64,000 bases of DNA, from the IMG/VR virus record IMGVR_UViG_3300021387_001614, positions 64,001-128,000 of that record; one strand, 5' to 3'. The position numbers were made by a program, and so were the translations under genes. This document shows positions 9,152 through 17,130 of this stretch, one piece after another. The DNA comes from a virus (lineage: Duplodnaviria; Caudoviricetes). The first letter of the stretch is position 1, and every line of letters begins with the position of its first letter. Below the pieces are notes generated by a model. It made no database searches. It had not been told where the DNA came from and saw only the letters and a list, made by a program, of their open reading frames with translations.

Positions 9152-9640
9152 TTAGTATGCGAGTATTGCATAGTCAAATCTCAGCGTTGCCTGTATTGTG
9201 GCAAGGTCGCTTGAACTATAATCCAACTCACCGAAGTTTACGTTGGTTAACATGGTGTTCTTCAATATCCACTTGGAAACCACAACACCGGTAGGGTCAA
9301 GCATTTCAAGTTCAACGTCACGTTTATAACCTGCTGCGTAACCTTGTCTACCCGTAACAGATTCTGACTGTAAACGCACCCATTCCATAATTGCCTGTGA
9401 TGCTGACGGTCCAATTGGGTCACGGAAAGTCACATTTATCTGTTCCCACTGATATCTACCAACAACATATGTTGATGTGTTGATAAATGGGATTGGGGTT
9501 TCTTCTTGTGTGATAGAAGGACGGGAAGCACTTGACAGCCACCACTCTTGTATTCCTAAGTCAGCTGGAAATCTAAAAAGCCATCGGTTTTTGCGAAGCG
9601 GTTCAAACTGCAACGGCGCCTTCAAAAGTAAATCACTCAT
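9152..9640 (-). CDS. Tail tube protein (T4 gp19-like)
   Basis: EPLRKNRW, W..INVTFRDPIGPS..QAIMEW, YKRDVELEMLDPTG, FGELDY motifs; late motif 9674-9681. Confidence 0.85.
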   Translation of the reverse strand: MSDLLLKAPLQFEPLRKNRWLFRFPADLGIQEWWLSSASRPSITQEETPIPFINTSTYVVGRYQWEQINVTFRDPIGPSASQAIMEWVRLQSESVTGRQGYAAGYKRDVELEMLDPTGVVVSKWILKNTMLTNVNFGELDYSSSDLATIQATLRFDYAILAY

Positions 9641-9741: not shown

Positions 9742-10056
9742 ATGGAAAAATACGAAATATTGACAGAGGGAAATAAATGCTTAAAAAACTCCCCCGTTTT
9801 TTTTAGGTTTCTAAAAGAAAACCAAATTTATGATAAATGGATAGAGAATAGAGCTAAATTTATTAAACATGAATTGTTAGCCAAATATCCTTGGCGAGGG
9901 ACTATATGCCACACTTATTTTCCACAAAAAGCACTTTTAACCAAATATCAAACTTCCTTTGCGTGGAATGAAACACCTGAGGGTTTTACCTATTGGGACA
10001 ATATAAATACGAGATACTTAAAATTTCTTACAGAAAATCCCATCGACACAGTTTAA
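9742..10056 (+). CDS. Small early hypothetical protein (FxRFLKEN family)
   Basis: 104 aa; promoter -7 box TATATTTG at 9707-9714; shares a motif with 45036..45509. Confidence 0.7.
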   Translation: MEKYEILTEGNKCLKNSPVFFRFLKENQIYDKWIENRAKFIKHELLAKYPWRGTICHTYFPQKALLTKYQTSFAWNETPEGFTYWDNINTRYLKFLTENPIDTV

Positions 10057-10091
10057 GTCCGATGGGATTTTTCTCATTATTGGGAAGAAAT

Positions 10092-10478
10092 TTAAAAATC
10101 ACCAAATTCAGCCCTATTTTTCATTTGGCGTTCTTTTGCTTTTTGTATTGTTTCTTTGTCGAGTTCTCTCTTCATCAACATGTTACCCTTTGTTCTGAAA
10201 AGACGGTCTGAATTATTTTTAGCCGTACCACGTTTTTCATTTTCTCTTTCAGAATAATAAACATCAGGATTAACAATCATATTAGCCTTGCCCGCCTTTT
10301 CTTTGGCTGCTTGGTATTGACGAACAGCCTCAAGCCACGCCTTTGTTCCCTTCTTCGACCTCTTTACCCTTGCCTTAAGTGCCTCTAGGTCTTCCTCTTC
10401 TTTTATAATTCTTTTTACTGAATTACTAATAATTCTATGAAGGTCAGATTCCGTTAATCTTATAAGTTTTTTTGCCAT
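10092..10478 (-). CDS. Basic protein with N-terminal LTESDL tag (putative internal head protein)
   Basis: Begins MAKKLIRLTESDLHRIISNSVKRIIKE. Confidence 0.75.
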   Translation of the reverse strand: MAKKLIRLTESDLHRIISNSVKRIIKEEEDLEALKARVKRSKKGTKAWLEAVRQYQAAKEKAGKANMIVNPDVYYSERENEKRGTAKNNSDRLFRTKGNMLMKRELDKETIQKAKERQMKNRAEFGDF

Positions 10479-10493
10479 ATCTTTTTAATGTTT

Positions 10494-10865
10494 TTAATCT
10501 TTATTTCCGGTATCGGTTAGAACTTTATCGCTCTCTAAGAAGACCTTTTTGAAAAATTCATATAAACTCGATGTCGGGCTATCTGAATATTTTTTCAACC
10601 CCTCTATTGCGGTCTCTCTAATTTTACCGATAATAGGCTCATGGCGAATAACTTCATTTGCATGCATTTCTTTCTCCTCTACGCTATCACCACGTTCCAT
10701 GTCATCGTGTCCGCCACGCATTTCTCTTTCATCATAAGGCATTTCATCACCTCCACCCATTTCGGGAGAATCAGAAAATTCGTCATCAAAAACATATGCC
10801 TCGCTTAAATATTTTTTGGCTTCATTTAATGTTCTCATGAAGTCGTTTTTAATGTTTCTTCTCAT
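10494..10865 (-). CDS. Acidic late hypothetical protein with LxE-rich N-terminus
   Basis: Start reassigned to ATG 10865 (MRRNIK), downstream of late motif 10880-10887. Confidence 0.7.
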   Translation of the reverse strand: MRRNIKNDFMRTLNEAKKYLSEAYVFDDEFSDSPEMGGGDEMPYDEREMRGGHDDMERGDSVEEKEMHANEVIRHEPIIGKIRETAIEGLKKYSDSPTSSLYEFFKKVFLESDKVLTDTGNKD

Positions 10866-10924
10866 ATTTCTATTTTCTATATAAATATTATCATAAACAA
10901 AAAATGCAGCCATTCTGGCTGCAT

Positions 10925-11084
10925 TTAAGTATTTTTTAACGTTTTAGTCGATTTCCAAACATATTTAACGATTCCACAATCATATATTCTAAAAATCTCA
11001 AGTTTTTTTGTCATTTCCAATTCTGTCATCGAAAGCGGAAAACCGTATTTCTTATGAAGGATTTGCTTTCTAAAATTAAACTTA
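10925..11084 (-). pseudogene. C-terminal fragment of a homing-endonuclease-like gene, cut by the IS element
   Basis: KFNFRKQIL...TELEM...RIYDCG..KYVW resembles the C-termini of phage Hef-like endonucleases; abuts the left TIR. Confidence 0.65.
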
Positions 11085-11196
11085 GGTAATGATATAGCAG
11101 TTGGCACAAAATAGGCTGTTATACGTATAGAAATGTCCTATAAACGCTGGACTTTTCGTAAATTTGCATTATAATTTAAAAGAAAAGTTCAGCGTT

Positions 11197-12183
11197 ATGA
11201 TTAATTTCAAGAAGTTCAACAACATCATTTCACTCACAGCGTATTTCACCTCTGATGAGAAGTGCAAGCAAGCCATTGTTGAGAGCCGTTGGGGTGTTGG
11301 CAATGAACAAGACGTTGTTTGCCCATATTGTGGTAAGCATCACTGCAAAATGTCCAAGAATGGACGTTTCCATTGCACTGAGTGCAACAAGAACTTTTCT
11401 TGCCTCGTTGGTACTATCTTCGAGAACACAAAGTTGCCACTCATCAAGTGGTTCGTTGCAATGTATCTTATATCTTCTCATAAGAAGGGTATCAGTAGCC
11501 ATCAACTGAGTCGTGACCTTTCAGTTACACAGTCAACTGCTTGGTATATGCTTCAGAAGATTCGTCTTCTTTACCCTCAGAGCGATGCAGATGCATTTGA
11601 GGGTACTGTTGAGTGTGATGAGGTGTACATCGGTGGTAAGGAAAAATGGAAACATAAGTCAATGCGCACTCCCAATACCCAAGGTCGTTCCATGAAGACC
11701 AAGACTCCAGTCTTTGGTATGATGGAGCGTAGCACCTTTGAGAATGAGAAGGGTGAGATTGAGCCTATTACGTATGTCCACGCATTCGTTGTTGAGAACA
11801 CGAATAGAGCCACATTACAGCCAATCATTCAGCAGTTCGTTGCTGATGGTTCAAGAGTCATCACTGATGAACTCAATGCATACAATGGACTTGCTGAGTT
11901 AGGATATACTCACGCTGTGGTTGCCCACGGTGCTGAAGAGTATGCCAATGGTGACGTATTCACCAATAGTATTGAGGGCTTTTGGAGTCACTTCAGACGT
12001 ATGATTGTTGGCTGTTATCACGATGTGTCTGATGAGCATCTTCAGCAGTACATTGACGAGGCTGTGTATCGTTGGAATACAAGAAAAATGAGCGAATCAG
12101 AGAGATTCGCCCATATGTTCGACAAGTCAATCGGGCTTGTTCGTAGATGGAGTGAAATTAGAGTTGGTCTGATGGCTGCATAG
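11197..12183 (+). CDS. IS1595-family (ISXO2-like) DDE transposase
   Basis: CPYCG..C..C zinc ribbon, GTIFENTKLPL..WF, VECDEVYIGG, ITDE...Y, TNSIEGFW, YIDE..YRWN; visibly higher GC than flanks; -7 box TAAATTTG 11159-11166. Confidence 0.95.
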   Translation: MINFKKFNNIISLTAYFTSDEKCKQAIVESRWGVGNEQDVVCPYCGKHHCKMSKNGRFHCTECNKNFSCLVGTIFENTKLPLIKWFVAMYLISSHKKGISSHQLSRDLSVTQSTAWYMLQKIRLLYPQSDADAFEGTVECDEVYIGGKEKWKHKSMRTPNTQGRSMKTKTPVFGMMERSTFENEKGEIEPITYVHAFVVENTNRATLQPIIQQFVADGSRVITDELNAYNGLAELGYTHAVVAHGAEEYANGDVFTNSIEGFWSHFRRMIVGCYHDVSDEHLQQYIDEAVYRWNTRKMSESERFAHMFDKSIGLVRRWSEIRVGLMAA

Positions 12184-12196
12184 ACAAGTATAACAA

Positions 12197-13018
12197 TCAT
12201 CTACGCATTGTTTTTAATATATGTTTACCTGAACTCGTTTGCTCTAAGAAAAAGTCCATACCTTGTTCAATTGCATTGTGTATTATATCTGCCACAGTTG
12301 CATATGCACGTTCATCTAAAATCCATTTTTTTAGCCTTTCTTGATATTGGTCCATTATATTATCATATGCCATATCTGTTGCCTTAGAAACATCATTATA
12401 CAATTCATCATAGCCTGATGCTAACGACCAATGTTCTTTCAATACTCTATTTACTGATTCTTTTACTATCTGTTTCAAATCACTTTCTGTGAGCCTAATC
12501 TGTTTCTTGTTCATATTTGTATATTTTATTTCTGTTATTATTTCTGGTGTTTCGTTTGGTCTTAATACCATTACTTTTGCGTGTTTGTGAGTGTTTGCCA
12601 ATGGGTCTTTAAAACCTTTGTTTTGCCATATATTCTGAACTGCTTGATTTATTAGTGCTGCATCATTATCATCAAGTATTTGGCAGTTGTAAACATACTG
12701 TATAACCTCAAATGATTTCCTTTCACCAACAACATTTCCTTGTTTATCTTTTATTTCCATGTCTACAGACACATCAGATTTATCTTCTCCGTTTTCCGAA
12801 TAAACCACACAAGTGTTTATTGCATAGGATGGGTCATAGTCTTTGTCATACCAAGTCCACAACCAAGTTCCGTGATTTGAAATTCTTGCTTGCATAGGTC
12901 TGCTATCTTCCATCCTATAAGTTCTATAATATGAAGTGTCTCTTCTGTTTGGTTTGAAACCACCATTACGTCTAATTAACTCTATTGCTGTATTAAAATC
13001 AATCATTTTGTTAAACAT
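12197..13018 (-). CDS. IS passenger protein: unknown N-terminal domain (SYY...RISNH) plus internal LTESDL tag
   Basis: Contains MNKKQIRLTESDLKQIVKESVNRVLKE; late motif at 13025-13032. Confidence 0.8.
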   Translation of the reverse strand: MFNKMIDFNTAIELIRRNGGFKPNRRDTSYYRTYRMEDSRPMQARISNHGTWLWTWYDKDYDPSYAINTCVVYSENGEDKSDVSVDMEIKDKQGNVVGERKSFEVIQYVYNCQILDDNDAALINQAVQNIWQNKGFKDPLANTHKHAKVMVLRPNETPEIITEIKYTNMNKKQIRLTESDLKQIVKESVNRVLKEHWSLASGYDELYNDVSKATDMAYDNIMDQYQERLKKWILDERAYATVADIIHNAIEQGMDFFLEQTSSGKHILKTMRR

Positions 13019-13068
13019 TTCTAATATAAATAGTTTGTAAGAAAGAAAAATATTAATTTTGCAGCATT

Positions 13069-13539
13069 ATGGCAAAGCAATACAATTCACTTTCTTTTTT
13101 TGATTACCCACCAACAGAATTGTTGGGTAGCAATATCTATGAAAACTCTATTAAAAGGTTATCATTTCAATACAGAACTAAAAATGAGGATAAACTCATT
13201 GCTTATATTGCTGTATCTCAAGACAAACCTAATATAGATGTACCAAATGTAGAAAACCAAATGAATGGTTGCAGAATCTTAGGTATTTATACAGAAAATT
13301 ATCAAATAGGGCACTATCAAGTAACAGATTTACAATTATTAGGGGCTTTACTTGATGAAGCTGAGTTTTACATTAAAGGTTGGGTTAATAACCAAAATGG
13401 TCAATTCCAATTTGATTACTTGTGGTTCAATGTGGTTGATTTTGATTCACAAGATGTTGTAGAAAGAATAGATAATATGATATTGAATAATGGTATAGCA
13501 TATAAACTTATAAAAAGAAATGAGCAGCCAAATCATTGA
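13069..13539 (+). CDS. IS passenger hypothetical protein behind a host-type promoter
   Basis: 156 aa; TAATTTTG -7 box at 13054-13061; terminator 13518-13550 just inside TIR-R. Confidence 0.75.
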   Translation: MAKQYNSLSFFDYPPTELLGSNIYENSIKRLSFQYRTKNEDKLIAYIAVSQDKPNIDVPNVENQMNGCRILGIYTENYQIGHYQVTDLQLLGALLDEAEFYIKGWVNNQNGQFQFDYLWFNVVDFDSQDVVERIDNMILNNGIAYKLIKRNEQPNH

Positions 13540-13586
13540 CTGCTCATTTTAAATAAGCAATTTGTGCCAACTGCTATATTATTGCC

Positions 13587-13702
13587 TGTTTTTTACATGT
13601 AACAATTATATTGGTTTTCGGGTTAACATATACTGATTTACTATAATCGAATAAATCACCATGTTTCTCTTTTGAACGCCTTATAAATTCCTCTGTGTTC
13701 AT
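13587..13702 (-). pseudogene. N-terminal fragment of the interrupted homing-endonuclease-like gene
   Basis: MNTEEFIRRSKEKHGDLFDYSKSVYVNPKTNIIVTCKK, a DUF723-like zinc-ribbon start, ends at TIR-R; its promoter is retained (CAAATATA 13721-13728, CAAA 13748-13751). Confidence 0.7.
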
Positions 13703-13780
13703 AAAATTTTTTCCTTTTTGCAAATATACAATAAATATTTGTAAAAACAAAAAAATAGGGGCAAAAAAACTTTTTATATT

Positions 13781-13811
13781 AAAAAAAGTGAGAGAAAAAA
13801 TCTCTCACTTT
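13781..13811 (-). terminator. Intrinsic terminator after the tail sheath gene
   Basis: AAAGTGAGAGA...TCTCTCACTTT with a U-tract on the minus strand. Confidence 0.8.
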
Positions 13812-13830
13812 CAAGTTATCTTCTTAACGA

Positions 13831-16800
13831 TTAAATATCGTCAAATGATACAGACTCCGGTGTTATAATAAAGTCGAGAGTGATGTACTCCAATGCATTG
13901 ATAGGTTTGAAGAATATCTTTGCTGGAAGTTCTCTGCGGTCTCTTGCCTCAGGACTGTCATCAACCTCAATTCTATAATCGGAAATACCCCTATTGCTTC
14001 TAATATTGTCAAGAATAGGCGTAACGATTGTCAGGAACTTGTTTTTAACCGTTGGGTCATTTGGCTCAAAAATGAGGTTGCGGCAACCAATTGCAATAAG
14101 TTTTCTCATTCTAAGCAAAAGTCTGCGAACAGAGATACGGTTAAGTTGTGACTCACCAATTTGTAAGTTCTTTTGCCCCCATATTTTAACTCCGTCCGTG
14201 GCAAATGTCTTAATTGGGTTAATACGTCCCTCATAAAGAACATCTTCCTCGCTAACCTTTGTTACGATACGAGCTCTAACGCAACTTACATCACCACGAT
14301 TGATACCTGCTGGTGCATACCAAGGATATGTGCTGTTGTCAGTCTTTGCAAGGTTTCTTACAACGTCCTTAGTTGGTGGCAAGTAAATGTATTGGTTATT
14401 GTCTTGGTCGAGATATTTAACCCATGGATAATACGTACAAGTATAATTAGAGTTAATTTCTGTATCCTCAAGATTAGAAACAACGTCATCTGCTGTGAAC
14501 ATTTCATCAACGAAATCACCTGCACCGCTTGGCTTATCAGGTGTTGTTACAACATAGATTGAGTCTGCACGTTCCTCTTCAATCATTTCAATAGCCTCTT
14601 CAACAAGTGTCTTATTGTTTACGTAATCAATACCCGGAGTTGCAAACACGTTAATATCAACAGCCTCAGGATTAGCAAACTGTCTAATACCTGCTAAGTA
14701 AGCGTACCAGTCAGATGTAATACCGTTCTGATTCAGTCCAATTGCTTCGGGGTCTGCGATTCTGTTAAATGAATAACCTTCACCACTGTTAACATCATAA
14801 GAACCTAAGTACTTAGAAAGTTTAAAGTCGTCTGTGTTGGTTCTCTCATCACGATATATATCCCAACCATCGAAACCGCCATAGAAATAAACAGTAAACT
14901 TACGTAAGTTAACATTCTCATAGATACTTCCCGTCATTGCTGCCTCTGTACCGATTATAGGCGCTTCTGTAAGTATGTTGGTTCTGTTGTTCTGTGACAC
15001 AGCGTCAAACTTATAACCCTTAACACCGTCAACAGTGATTTCAGGTGTTGAATCTGCGTCATAACCATCCAAGTTAAGTCTACTATCCAAGTGGAATCCG
15101 TTTGTAAGGCTTTCAGGTACGTCAATATATGCAGTTTCACCCTTATATGTAAATGCATCGATATCTACACCTACTCTTGAAGAAAGACCGAAATATTGTT
15201 TTCTGTTCTTAACATCCTCATCATAATTAAGGTTGTATTTCAAAATTGGATTAATAATGTCTTCACCATTATTCGGGTCAACGATAGGTGTTCCTGCGAA
15301 ATTAACTTGAGGATATCCTAAGAAACCTGCCGGAACAGAGTTCTCTGTGATTGAGTTCTCGTTAACCTCTACTGTAATGAACTTAGATTTGCTCTCATAA
15401 ACACCATCATAAGAACCAATCTTAAATGCAACGTAATTGTTTGTTCCCGGAACTAATGAACAACGTGAGAATTTCTCCAATGGGATTTGATATTCATCAG
15501 TATCGTCTATTCTGCGAACAACAACGTCGAATACACCCTCGTCAGGACGTACATTCTCAATAGAAACCTTAATTTCATTGTTAGATGAGTTACCATCAGA
15601 AATTGTGTGGAATCTAAACAATTTGTTAATCTCTATCTTATTGTAGTCACCCTTCAGATTAGAAACAATCCAAGGTGTTGATGCATATCTGTACGCTGAC
15701 TTGTAGTTGTTAAGGTCACAATCAACATAGGTTACATCAGTGTTTTCCGAATCTTTCATTCTATAATACAAACCGTCCTGCAAATTTTTTACAATGACCA
15801 TTTTTGTTTCATCTTCTGACTGCAACTCTTTTCCATAAACAAGTTTATCAATAACTGCAACCGTTGTTTCACCACTAGGTATTGTACTCTCATCCCAATG
15901 TCTGTAGAAATATTTGCGCTTACCGTCTGCATCTGTGTATTGTGCCACCGTATAAATTTGACCAACTTGAACATTTTCCACCTTTAATCCGTCAGTTTCA
16001 CCTGAATCCGCTATTGGTTTACCTGTTTTGAAATCATATGGGTGGCAAGTGATTGCCGGTTCGCCGTTTGCTGCATTTGCGTCAGCAAGGAACCTTTGTC
16101 CTACATTCTTTCTTGAAAGGAAATTTTCTTGTACGGTCATTATACCACCAACAGGCTCAAGACCACAATAGTCAGCAGGATAATAAACTTGATAGAATGT
16201 TAAATCGCTGTCAATACTTTCTGCGTGGAAATCAGACTCGTTAGCCTCATTAACTGCTTGTCTTAATGCAACATCATAAAGACTTTCAACGAATACGGGC
16301 GCGTCACCGTCTGATGGTGATGTACCAAGTACATTAAGAATGAAGTCCTTATCTACAGGATTAAGAGAAACAGGATACTCGAAATAACTGCTTATACCTT
16401 CTCCATCATCGGTTGCTTTTTTGTTATCTTTATCAATAGTAGCATCTTTATCGTGAACGCCTGCTATACCGATAATTTTGAAACGACCAAGATTTGTGGT
16501 GCTCACACTGAAATCGCCTGTTTCACCTGAAAACTGCCAATTATCACACTCATTACCCACTGAATAAAGTGGGTTGTAAACATCAAGTGCAAGTGCATTT
16601 GGATTGTACTGAACCGGAGTGTTGCATGTACTACCCGACTTTTTAATTTCACCAACCTCATAAACAAGGCTGTCATAATCTTCATTTGGACATTCGCACG
16701 TTCCCGTGTTTGCGTCAAACTTACGATACTTCTGATACTCTCCCCTTGAACGGAGTACGCATACTGCCATTTTCTTACCATTCTTAAGGTTTGCTGTTAC

Positions 16801-17130
16801 TACCCATGCCGGACCTGCGTTATAGCCACCAAGTCCAAGAACACGAACAACCTCAAGTTGTTTCGATTCTGTCAGATATGATTTTGCAATATAAGGTAAT
16901 TCATACTTAGGATATTGATTACCCTTAAATTTCTCTGTGCTTGTTCCACCAAACATTGATGTGAACTCACGCCAATCTTCAATGTGCATTGGCTGGAATG
17001 CGGGACCTCTCAGTGTTTCACCAACGACACCAAGCGTGGTGATACCAAGACTCTTAACTGCATAAGTCAACTCCACCTCACGTGAATAAACACCTGGAGA
17101 TACGTGAATGCCTCTAGCGTTGTCTGCCAT
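13831..17130 (-). CDS. Contractile tail sheath protein
   Basis: N-terminal SPGVYSREVE, GET.RGPAF.P; C-terminal YYPWV, PWYAPAG..RG, RINPI, WGQK, LNRISVRRLL, FEPND. Confidence 0.95.
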   Translation of the reverse strand: MADNARGIHVSPGVYSREVELTYAVKSLGITTLGVVGETLRGPAFQPMHIEDWREFTSMFGGTSTEKFKGNQYPKYELPYIAKSYLTESKQLEVVRVLGLGGYNAGPAWVVTANLKNGKKMAVCVLRSRGEYQKYRKFDANTGTCECPNEDYDSLVYEVGEIKKSGSTCNTPVQYNPNALALDVYNPLYSVGNECDNWQFSGETGDFSVSTTNLGRFKIIGIAGVHDKDATIDKDNKKATDDGEGISSYFEYPVSLNPVDKDFILNVLGTSPSDGDAPVFVESLYDVALRQAVNEANESDFHAESIDSDLTFYQVYYPADYCGLEPVGGIMTVQENFLSRKNVGQRFLADANAANGEPAITCHPYDFKTGKPIADSGETDGLKVENVQVGQIYTVAQYTDADGKRKYFYRHWDESTIPSGETTVAVIDKLVYGKELQSEDETKMVIVKNLQDGLYYRMKDSENTDVTYVDCDLNNYKSAYRYASTPWIVSNLKGDYNKIEINKLFRFHTISDGNSSNNEIKVSIENVRPDEGVFDVVVRRIDDTDEYQIPLEKFSRCSLVPGTNNYVAFKIGSYDGVYESKSKFITVEVNENSITENSVPAGFLGYPQVNFAGTPIVDPNNGEDIINPILKYNLNYDEDVKNRKQYFGLSSRVGVDIDAFTYKGETAYIDVPESLTNGFHLDSRLNLDGYDADSTPEITVDGVKGYKFDAVSQNNRTNILTEAPIIGTEAAMTGSIYENVNLRKFTVYFYGGFDGWDIYRDERTNTDDFKLSKYLGSYDVNSGEGYSFNRIADPEAIGLNQNGITSDWYAYLAGIRQFANPEAVDINVFATPGIDYVNNKTLVEEAIEMIEEERADSIYVVTTPDKPSGAGDFVDEMFTADDVVSNLEDTEINSNYTCTYYPWVKYLDQDNNQYIYLPPTKDVVRNLAKTDNSTYPWYAPAGINRGDVSCVRARIVTKVSEEDVLYEGRINPIKTFATDGVKIWGQKNLQIGESQLNRISVRRLLLRMRKLIAIGCRNLIFEPNDPTVKNKFLTIVTPILDNIRSNRGISDYRIEVDDSPEARDRRELPAKIFFKPINALEYITLDFIITPESVSFDDI

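Follow-up and report, generated by a model that had tools for sequence, protein, structure and literature searches.

Some members of the IS1595 family of insertion sequences (ISs) carry passenger genes and are known as transporter ISs, for example the ISNha5 and ISNwi1 groups (ISfinder/TnPedia). IS elements in phages are considered rare and usually harmful. Two further systems serve here as points of comparison: the internal proteins of phage T4 (IPI–III and Alt), which have capsid-targeting sequences and whose prohead protease cuts after L/I-x-E, and the polymorphic toxin loci (contact-dependent inhibition (CDI) and Rhs), in which a conserved motif opens an exchangeable C-terminal domain. Here we describe a 2,502-bp IS1595-family element at positions 11085–13586 of a 64,000-nucleotide stretch of viral DNA (Caudoviricetes), which we call the window and which covers positions 64,001–128,000 of record IMGVR_UViG_3300021387_001614. 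The element holds a transposase and two cargo genes inside terminal inverted repeats, and one cargo protein contains a conserved 27-residue motif, hereafter the tag. Overall, we consider it likely that the element belongs to a Bacteroidales-wide IS1595 clade that carries cargo, shuttles between hosts and phages and bears a tagged gene wired to phage-type signals.

The locus shares with transporter ISs a transposase with zinc-ribbon and DDE_Tnp_IS1595 domains, repeats starting with GG, 8-bp target duplications (in its relatives) and extra genes within the repeats. Unlike them, it has a clade-wide passenger with a single conserved 27-residue motif, phage-like composition and a phage-type upstream motif; this passenger is convergent with the transposase gene and abuts its stop codon, its terminator lies inside the transposase gene, and the clade occurs in both host and phage genomes. 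We therefore file the element as an IS1595-family transposon with passenger genes (transporter-IS type), distinguished by a fixed, phage-wired, polymorphic passenger and a host–phage shuttle lifestyle.

An IS1595-family element with two cargo genes

The source record is viral and consists of one contig (146,936 bp), with a guanine–cytosine (GC) content of 0.349 and a CheckV completeness of 44%. An inverted-repeat search identified the left terminal repeat (GGTAATGATATAGCAGTTGGCACAAA, 11085–11110, plus strand), which has a matching end in L002, L007, L026–L031 and other related loci, and the right repeat (GGCAATAATATAGCAGTTGGCACAAA in its minus-strand reading, 13561–13586), with the same end in relatives. 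The two arms are complementary at 24 of 26 positions, or at 25 of 27 when 11084–11110 and 13561–13587 are compared, and by our estimate ~4e-6 such pairs are expected by chance within 3.7 kb.

Between the repeats lies an intact 328-aa transposase gene (11197–12183, plus strand; GC ~0.44) whose product has a zinc ribbon and a DDE domain. It matches Pfam DDE_Tnp_IS1595 (PF12762) over the whole profile (6e-45), Zn_ribbon_IS1595 (PF12760; 1.6e-9, 38 bits against a cut-off of 25.4) and NCBIfam transpos_IS1595 (NF033547; 1.9e-58, above the model cut-off), and its ATG is at 11197, not 11194. The first cargo open reading frame (ORF; 12197–13018, minus strand, 273 aa) converges on the transposase gene, with 13 nt between the two stops, and its product consists of an N-terminal domain (N-domain), the tag and a C-terminal tail. 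The second (13069–13539, plus strand, 156 aa) is divergent from the first, and inverted-repeat and terminator scans place a hairpin with a 14-bp stem across its stop codon (13518–13549). An earlier note, made from these letters without database searches, had described 26-bp repeats with 24/26 identity around an intact transposase and two passenger genes; coordinates, domains and ORFs were all recovered here.

Relatives carry cargo inside their repeats

A scan of IMG/VR with the transposase yielded 20 loci, every one with a convergent tag-bearing ORF within a few hundred bases of the transposase or of a remnant of its last ~35 codons. When one genome per GTDB species was scanned with a profile, >560 relatives came up, of which 80 loci were kept. 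In 38 related elements both repeats could be anchored. These are mostly 2.2–3.1 kb long, and their common layout is a transposase on the plus strand, a tagged gene on the minus strand and usually a third, divergent gene on the plus strand. Target duplications of 8 bp surround transposase and cargo together in 28 of the 38 (27 perfect, one matching at 7/8), as with the perfect duplications AAAAATTA, TTTCCTTA and TTTTCAAT of L001, L002 and L007, respectively. The last of these, in genomic surroundings unrelated to those of the window copy, carries homologues of both window cargo genes (68% and 76% identity).

The earlier note had proposed a single transposon with variable but consistently tagged cargo, and had named homologues that end after the transposase or carry untagged cargo as what would speak against it. 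Because no bare ~1.1-kb element occurs among the 38, that objection fails: anchored relatives hold tagged cargo inside their repeats (24/38 by a strict pattern, and further ones by tblastn). From duplications at many sites and near-identical copies in different contexts we infer transposition, and on these comparisons the transposon-with-cargo reading is strongly supported. The duplications consist mostly of A and T only, which suggests a target-site preference. Two different elements in different genomes (L027 and L045) have an identical palindromic 8-bp duplication, TAATTAAT.

A tag followed by an exchangeable tail

The tag of the window (MNKKQIRLTESDLKQIVKESVNRVLKE, 12434–12514, minus strand) was delimited by profile and alignment; its clade motif is RLTESDLHxIVKESV..LxE. 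Across the clade, this motif is often preceded by a variable N-domain, and a variable C-terminal tail always comes after it. Both parts of the arrangement described in the earlier note, a full tag with its own Met at 12514 and a domain of ~165 aa in front of it, were found. A profile built from 53 tags matches nine places in the 147-kb phage record and one in a 3.5-Mb Prevotella genome, within an IS, a density more than 200 times higher in the phage; in Hoylesella loescheii it gives one weak match only. Among 1.84 billion proteins, 9,313 representative clusters have a match to the tag at E ≤ 0.001. Searches of the GenBank phage collection by tblastn with a 32-aa tag (E ≤ 0.1) and of the literature for 'LTESDL' returned no match, and an ESM Atlas feature search with the tag (best score ≤0.81) gave a lead only.

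The tag is conserved as a peptide. Across 66 tags, identity at codon positions 1, 2 and 3 is 0.68, 0.78 and 0.43, and Ser and Leu are each encoded by both codon families; since third positions are free to vary and codon families are mixed, the constraint acts on the peptide, and a DNA or RNA element was ruled out. Half a ribbon-helix-helix fold, suggested by a strand-then-helix appearance, was considered and dropped; the structure model has a single continuous helix of low confidence (residues 178–198). The near-invariant residues are L8/E10 and E27, and position 25 is most often Leu.

The tag is N-terminal on eight other ORFs of the phage and internal in the window protein (residue 169) and in most IS cargo, although a start at the internal Met169 of the window protein is possible. 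Many proteins hold 2–4 tags with acidic, aromatic-rich stretches between them. In five of these (P0169, P0170, P0173, P0182 and P0200) the spacers are ~100 aa long and the proteins resemble in-frame strings of tagged modules. A second short motif, ELDWKT, directly follows the tag in several otherwise different proteins (L003, L006, L057, L071 and L078).

Like T4 capsid-targeting sequences, the tag is short, common to unrelated phage proteins, contains (L/I/V)-x-E triplets and is present in many copies per genome. It differs from those ~10-residue leaders in its length of 27 residues, in being often internal or repeated and in occurring also in bacterial chromosomes.

The domain in front of the tag (~165 aa; 12515–13006, minus strand) probably starts at Met5 (13006), judging from homologue alignments, with the ORF extending to 13018. 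The 273-aa protein has 286 homologues, which match no domain family save a zinc ribbon (PF13240) on a few. The conserved part comprises the N-domain (residues 5–155), a linker and the tag, with up to 96% identity across the full-length protein; behind the tag, close relatives have sequences unrelated to one another. The N-domain is modelled with a predicted local distance difference test (pLDDT) score of 80–93 over residues 40–160. It has no structural match by Foldseek against the PDB, all ESM Atlas matches have template-modelling (TM) scores <0.35, and a wide VIA search gave no match for it, though matches of the helical tail filled that list. Pfam, PHROGs, NCBIfam and PADLOC held nothing credible for the 273-aa protein, the 156-aa protein or other tagged proteins.

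The variable C-terminal cassette (residues 196–273; 12197–12433, minus strand) shows as a break in DNA homology and in the protein alignment. Six loci (L108, L110, L112, L113, L007 and L031) match the window over 11085–12182 at 82–88% identity (L108–L113 from 11156) and again from 12434 or 12450 to 13587 at 78–93.5%, and none does so over 12183–12433. Homology thus breaks off after the tag and returns at the transposase stop, so that these two points bound an exchangeable segment, and the stretch between them is, by this comparison, swapped between otherwise similar elements. The 156-aa gene keeps 93% DNA identity where the neighbouring tail is replaced, and the loci of P0007 and P0017, one of them on a 300-kb contig, have the same three-gene layout beside an IS1595 transposase with different tails.

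As in CDI and Rhs loci, a conserved peptide marks a sharp boundary before swapped, unrelated C-termini in otherwise near-identical genes. In contrast to those loci, the tails are short (75–130 aa), often acidic and without a toxin domain recognized by Pfam, NCBIfam or PADLOC; no co-varying immunity gene follows, and on its far side the cassette is bounded by the transposase stop codon.

Putative expression signals and degraded copies

In all 21 elements measured, GC is higher in the transposase part (0.40–0.50, median 0.444) than in the cargo part (0.29–0.36, median 0.327). This gap is independent of the flanks, which range from 0.43 to 0.55 in bacteria and from 0.30 to 0.39 in viruses.

The region that separates the two cargo genes, conserved in phage and bacterial copies alike, includes the motif TATTTATA (13025–13032, minus strand), identical to the phage's own strand-biased motif. 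The motif lies 7 nt before the first ATG of the 273-aa ORF, in agreement with the 7–14 bp given in the earlier note, and 18 nt before Met5; because homologues begin at Met5, the latter spacing applies to the likely start and is within the usual range for this phage. Within 11–39 nt upstream of the tagged gene, TAT[TA]TAT is present in 22 of 24 elements, compared to 4 for the complement control and a mean of 2.7 (maximum 9) in 2,000 shuffles, and in its extended form the consensus reads (G/A)ATATTTAT(A/T), with an A-run after it. In the phage, TATTTAT lies upstream of 23 of 121 greedily called genes, the tail-tube gene among them, and the 10-mer GATATTTATA occurs 11 times (10 on the gene strand) versus 2 for the reversed control. 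Two Prevotellaceae genomes showed no enrichment of the 10-mer (26 versus 21 and 8 versus 12 for motif and control). Enrichment in the phage and not in host genomes indicates that the motif is a phage-type signal rather than a host promoter. Of the late promotion of the cargo claimed in the earlier note, the phage motif thus stands, and late timing is plausible.

The 156-aa gene is preceded at 7 nt by TAATTTTG (13054–13061, plus strand), a conserved alignment block present in 20 of 24 elements that matches TAnnTTTG, the consensus −7 box of Bacteroides promoters.

Terminator scanning and RNA folding place a terminator-like hairpin for the tagged gene antisense within the last 33 codons of the transposase (12088–12114, minus strand). 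Read on the cargo strand (12114–12088), it has an 11-pair stem, a 5-nt loop and a T-run. The same segment is retained in degraded copies (L011–L020), in which a kept block begins at one fixed base, just before the Met that opens the last 33 transposase codons, and the sequence upstream is unrelated from copy to copy. The left repeat is joined directly to this block in L011, in L015 and in a second L002 copy. Within the block (window 12084–12183; L002 7517–7574) the stem is invariant and changes fall in the loop or are synonymous (CGT/AGA, TCT/AGT). A mere limit of detection was ruled out as the origin of the block, since unrelated upstream sequences join it at the same base in several loci. 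What outlasts decay in these remnants is the cargo transcription unit, and the block may serve as a terminator, as an antisense target or as a small peptide. L010, L011, L015 and the second L002 copy resemble derivatives of the miniature inverted-repeat transposable element type in keeping the ends and losing most of the transposase, and differ from them in keeping the whole cargo transcription unit and exactly the last 33 transposase codons.

Copies in bacterial chromosomes and phages

Copies with the same architecture are found in Prevotellaceae and Bacteroidaceae genomes. The GTDB copies are flanked by genes for transketolase, a Ser/Thr kinase, anaerobic ribonucleotide reductase (NrdD), peptidase U32, aldo-keto reductase, FMN reductase, a prolidase-like protein and a Y-family polymerase. 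A Prevotellaceae metagenome-assembled genome (MAG) has both window cargo genes (69% and 76% identity) in a copy adjoining transketolase (L031), and the transposase nearest to that of the window (95% identical) comes from a Prevotella MAG of the cattle rumen (L026). A cultured isolate, Prevotella sp. tf2-5, carries a single copy, with a HicAB-like pair on one side and a secreted subtilase on the other.

In a maximum-likelihood tree of 74 transposases, eight of them viral, the viral label requires 8 changes, against a mean of 7.7 after shuffling, and at least 6 are forced by well-supported branches; one viral copy is the sister of the cultured isolate's copy (support 98). This interleaving indicates repeated exchange of elements between phages and bacterial chromosomes. 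The specialization for, or restriction to, jumbo phages suggested in the earlier note is contradicted by the tree, by the housekeeping flanks in Prevotellaceae and by the copy in the isolate. The clade is a large, Bacteroidales-wide and apparently undescribed group common to chromosomes of rumen and gut Prevotella and to their large phages. Window positions 10000–14500 had no DNA match in the GenBank phage collection, where the transposase gave distant matches only, and a literature search on IS1595 passengers and Prevotella found no description of this clade.

The 156-aa protein and other third genes

The 156-aa protein (13069–13539, plus strand), modelled from 24 homologues (pLDDT 90, predicted TM score 0.84), has a GNAT-like fold. 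The best VIA match is 4pv6_C, an archaeal Ard1 (Z 11.2, root-mean-square deviation 3.4 Å over 125 aligned residues), 110 chains reach Z ≥ 8, the listed ones all being GNAT or GNAT-like, and Foldseek gives a probability of 1.00 (E 6e-4). The gene co-occurs with the N-domain in L007, L031, L033, L042, L062 and L108–L113. In complex prediction, the N-domain and the 156-aa protein score 0.66, compared to 0.40 for the best of three controls, with one of three runs at 0.00; runs share at least 5% of contacts and the partner pLDDT is at least 78 for the score of 0.66. Among solved complexes 58 of 80 reach this mark, as against 2 of 110 among mismatched pairs, and the N-domain is predicted to bind the 156-aa protein.

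In many other elements the third gene is unrelated to the 156-aa gene, as found by hhalign for those of L053 and L002, and ten third genes of related elements had nothing credible in Pfam, PHROGs, NCBIfam or PADLOC.

Proposed mechanism and alternative explanations

In the mechanism that we propose, the DDE transposase moves the whole unit between the repeats into AT-rich sites, making 8-bp duplications of the kind seen in the relatives and presumed for the window copy, and copies would be exchanged repeatedly between large phages and the chromosomes of their Prevotellaceae or Bacteroidaceae hosts. The window copy would have landed in a phage gene of 551 aa, of which ~1.4 kb was then lost and the duplication with it. 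The tagged gene would be read from the phage-type motif and end at the terminator antisense in the transposase tail, and the 156-aa gene would be read from the host-type −7 box. Since the motif is used by the phage and not by host genomes, production of the tagged protein probably coincides with the activity of a phage that has the cognate transcription machinery, and this would hold for chromosomal copies too. The tag would act as a peptide handle common to thousands of unrelated, mostly phage-borne proteins, marking the start of exchanged C-terminal cassettes, and most likely docks them onto one common phage or host partner, which is the weakest step; the N-domain of the window cargo may additionally bind the GNAT-like protein.

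Several points weigh against this proposal. Searches of Pfam, NCBIfam, PHROGs, PADLOC and structures returned no function for the tag, the N-domain or the tail, and the cargo promoter and terminator are putative assignments made from sequence motifs. No acetyltransferase model of Pfam or NCBIfam matches the 156-aa protein, and by eye the homologue alignment lacks a conserved acetyl-CoA motif (Q/R-x-x-G-x-G/A) after strand 4, so that the protein is GNAT-like in fold only and may be no enzyme. The transposase tree is a quick one. Mis-binning is possible, as most bacterial copies are from MAGs, but is made less likely by the housekeeping flanks on the same contigs and by the cultured isolate. Finally, because the window copy is without a target duplication, the case for its own mobility as a unit comes from its relatives.

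This missing duplication could also favour another reading, in which two ordinary genes of the phage became trapped between ends that belong to separate IS copies, both partly decayed, so that the right repeat is foreign to the element. The cargo resembles the phage in GC, unlike the transposase, and a solo end of the same IS type exists elsewhere in the genome (L023 4840–4865). However, bacterial copies have low-GC cargo as well, the 1.4-kb loss in the target gene accounts for the absent duplication, and the stretch from the transposase stop (12183) to the cargo stop (12197) neither has space for a right repeat nor shows a trace of one. Transposase, cargo and repeats moreover recur as a unit with perfect duplications in other contexts (27 elements, L007 with the same cargo), and we regard trapping as very improbable.

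The remaining alternatives concern what the cargo does. An element specialized for jumbo phages could use the tag as a capsid-targeting sequence, so that the cargo protein, made late, would be packaged in virions and delivered by injection to the host infected next. The N-terminal tag on eight other phage ORFs and its density relative to the Prevotella genome are in keeping with this, as is the phage motif upstream of the cargo in 22/24 elements and of the tail-tube gene. L8/E10 and E27 with the common Leu25 form (L/I/V)-x-E triplets, which we take to resemble cleavage sites of a T4-type prohead protease, and a genome of ~330 kb is plausible from the completeness of 44%, relatives being on contigs of 184–401 kb. 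A Peptidase_S77 search of the phage record gave no match, its positive controls being silent as well, and PHROG annotation of ten neighbouring phage genes included no head genes. The element is, however, common in bacterial chromosomes, where its copies interleave with those of phages, and a tag that is internal in the window protein and most IS cargo, and present 2–4 times in many proteins, is a poor fit to a simple N-terminal address. Capsid loading via the tag is a hypothetical role, favoured by phage bias and L-x-E triplets and weakened by internal and repeated occurrence, and this jumbo-phage explanation as a whole appears unlikely. A somewhat larger, if still doubtful, place has to be given to a two-protein conflict module (toxin–antitoxin-like, anti-phage defence or counter-defence), in which the GNAT-fold protein would act on some target under the control of the N-domain protein, the tag would be no more than a common helical or oligomerization segment, and the element would spread through the benefit that the module gives to any replicon carrying it. 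The fold also resembles the tRNA-acetylating toxins AtaT (Z 9.7) and TacT3 (Z 9.8), binding to the N-domain is predicted, the two partners co-occur and diverge together in L007, L031, L033, L042, L062, L108 and L112, and a variable tail with a variable third gene fits an arms-race pattern. Against such a module, the genes are divergent and form no operon, PADLOC has no match, the acetyl-CoA motif is unconserved, and the tag is kept where the third gene is unrelated and the tail differs where the third gene is the same.

A cargo-carrying clade with a phage-wired tagged gene would place a whole group of ISs on both sides of the phage–host boundary in a main genus of the rumen and gut. If the proposed wiring is correct, bacterial chromosomes hold IS-delivered, phage-inducible genes. 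A more far-reaching version, which we think quite improbable, is that the clade spreads polymorphic phage-addressed proteins, the tag directing them to a phage structure or compartment and the promoter firing only under phage machinery. Chromosomal Prevotella copies would then be silent until infection and deliver variable tails onto or into the infecting phage, either as an IS-borne host defence that sabotages it or as an accessory that makes phages tolerate and ferry the element. The tag family, which has no Pfam model (9,313 clusters), gains a defined genetic context for study, and a one-gene transposase with defined ends and a swappable cassette suits work on the addressing and exchange of phage proteins.

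Insertion site and a second IS1595 element

The element lies between the tail-tube gene (9152–9640) and the tail-sheath gene (13831–17130). The 8 bp on its left (TAAACTTA) and right (TGTTTTTT) agree at 3 positions. On either side are pieces of one phage gene, the first 38 codons at 13588–13702 and the last 52 codons at 10925–11083 (both minus strand), recognized by alignment with intact genes and, for the former, by Pfam. The intact 551-aa gene is present beside the tail-tube gene in two related phage contigs (L006:1776–3431 and L001:861–2519), and ~475 codons (~1.4 kb) are gone between the two pieces in the window. We infer insertion into this gene and a later loss of ~1.4 kb that would have removed the duplication, recombination between two copies being one possible route; a target duplication is the footprint of one insertion event and not a property of an element. 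The 551-aa product has several zinc-finger repeats (DUF4379/DUF723) and, behind them, a Mom-like or GNAT-like C-terminus. This architecture, encoded next to the tail-tube gene, resembles that of homing-endonuclease-associated proteins.

In related phages, the tube-to-sheath interval has a transposase remnant beside the orthologue of a tagged 128-aa gene (window 10092–10478) or beside another tagged gene (L017 4001–4565 and L012 4001–4454), and in L006 it contains a tandem pair of transposases. The interval appears to be an insertion hotspot, and some of its resident tagged genes may descend from old insertions.

A second IS1595 element, distinct from the first, is present in the same phage ~13 kb ahead of the window (L023 4866–7065; G000:C1:48865–51064), with perfect 25-bp inverted repeats, an 8-bp duplication (TTATTATC) and a transposase 52% identical to that of the window. 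Its cargo is a convergent BspA-type leucine-rich repeat gene with GATATTTATA upstream, and its bacterial relatives (L090, L092 and L095) have leucine-rich repeat cargo too. The solo end at L023 4840–4865, which matches the window's IS type at 22 of 26 positions, abuts the left repeat of this second element ~145 bp upstream of a 327-aa gene, and the tip of this old end was duplicated by the second IS on insertion.

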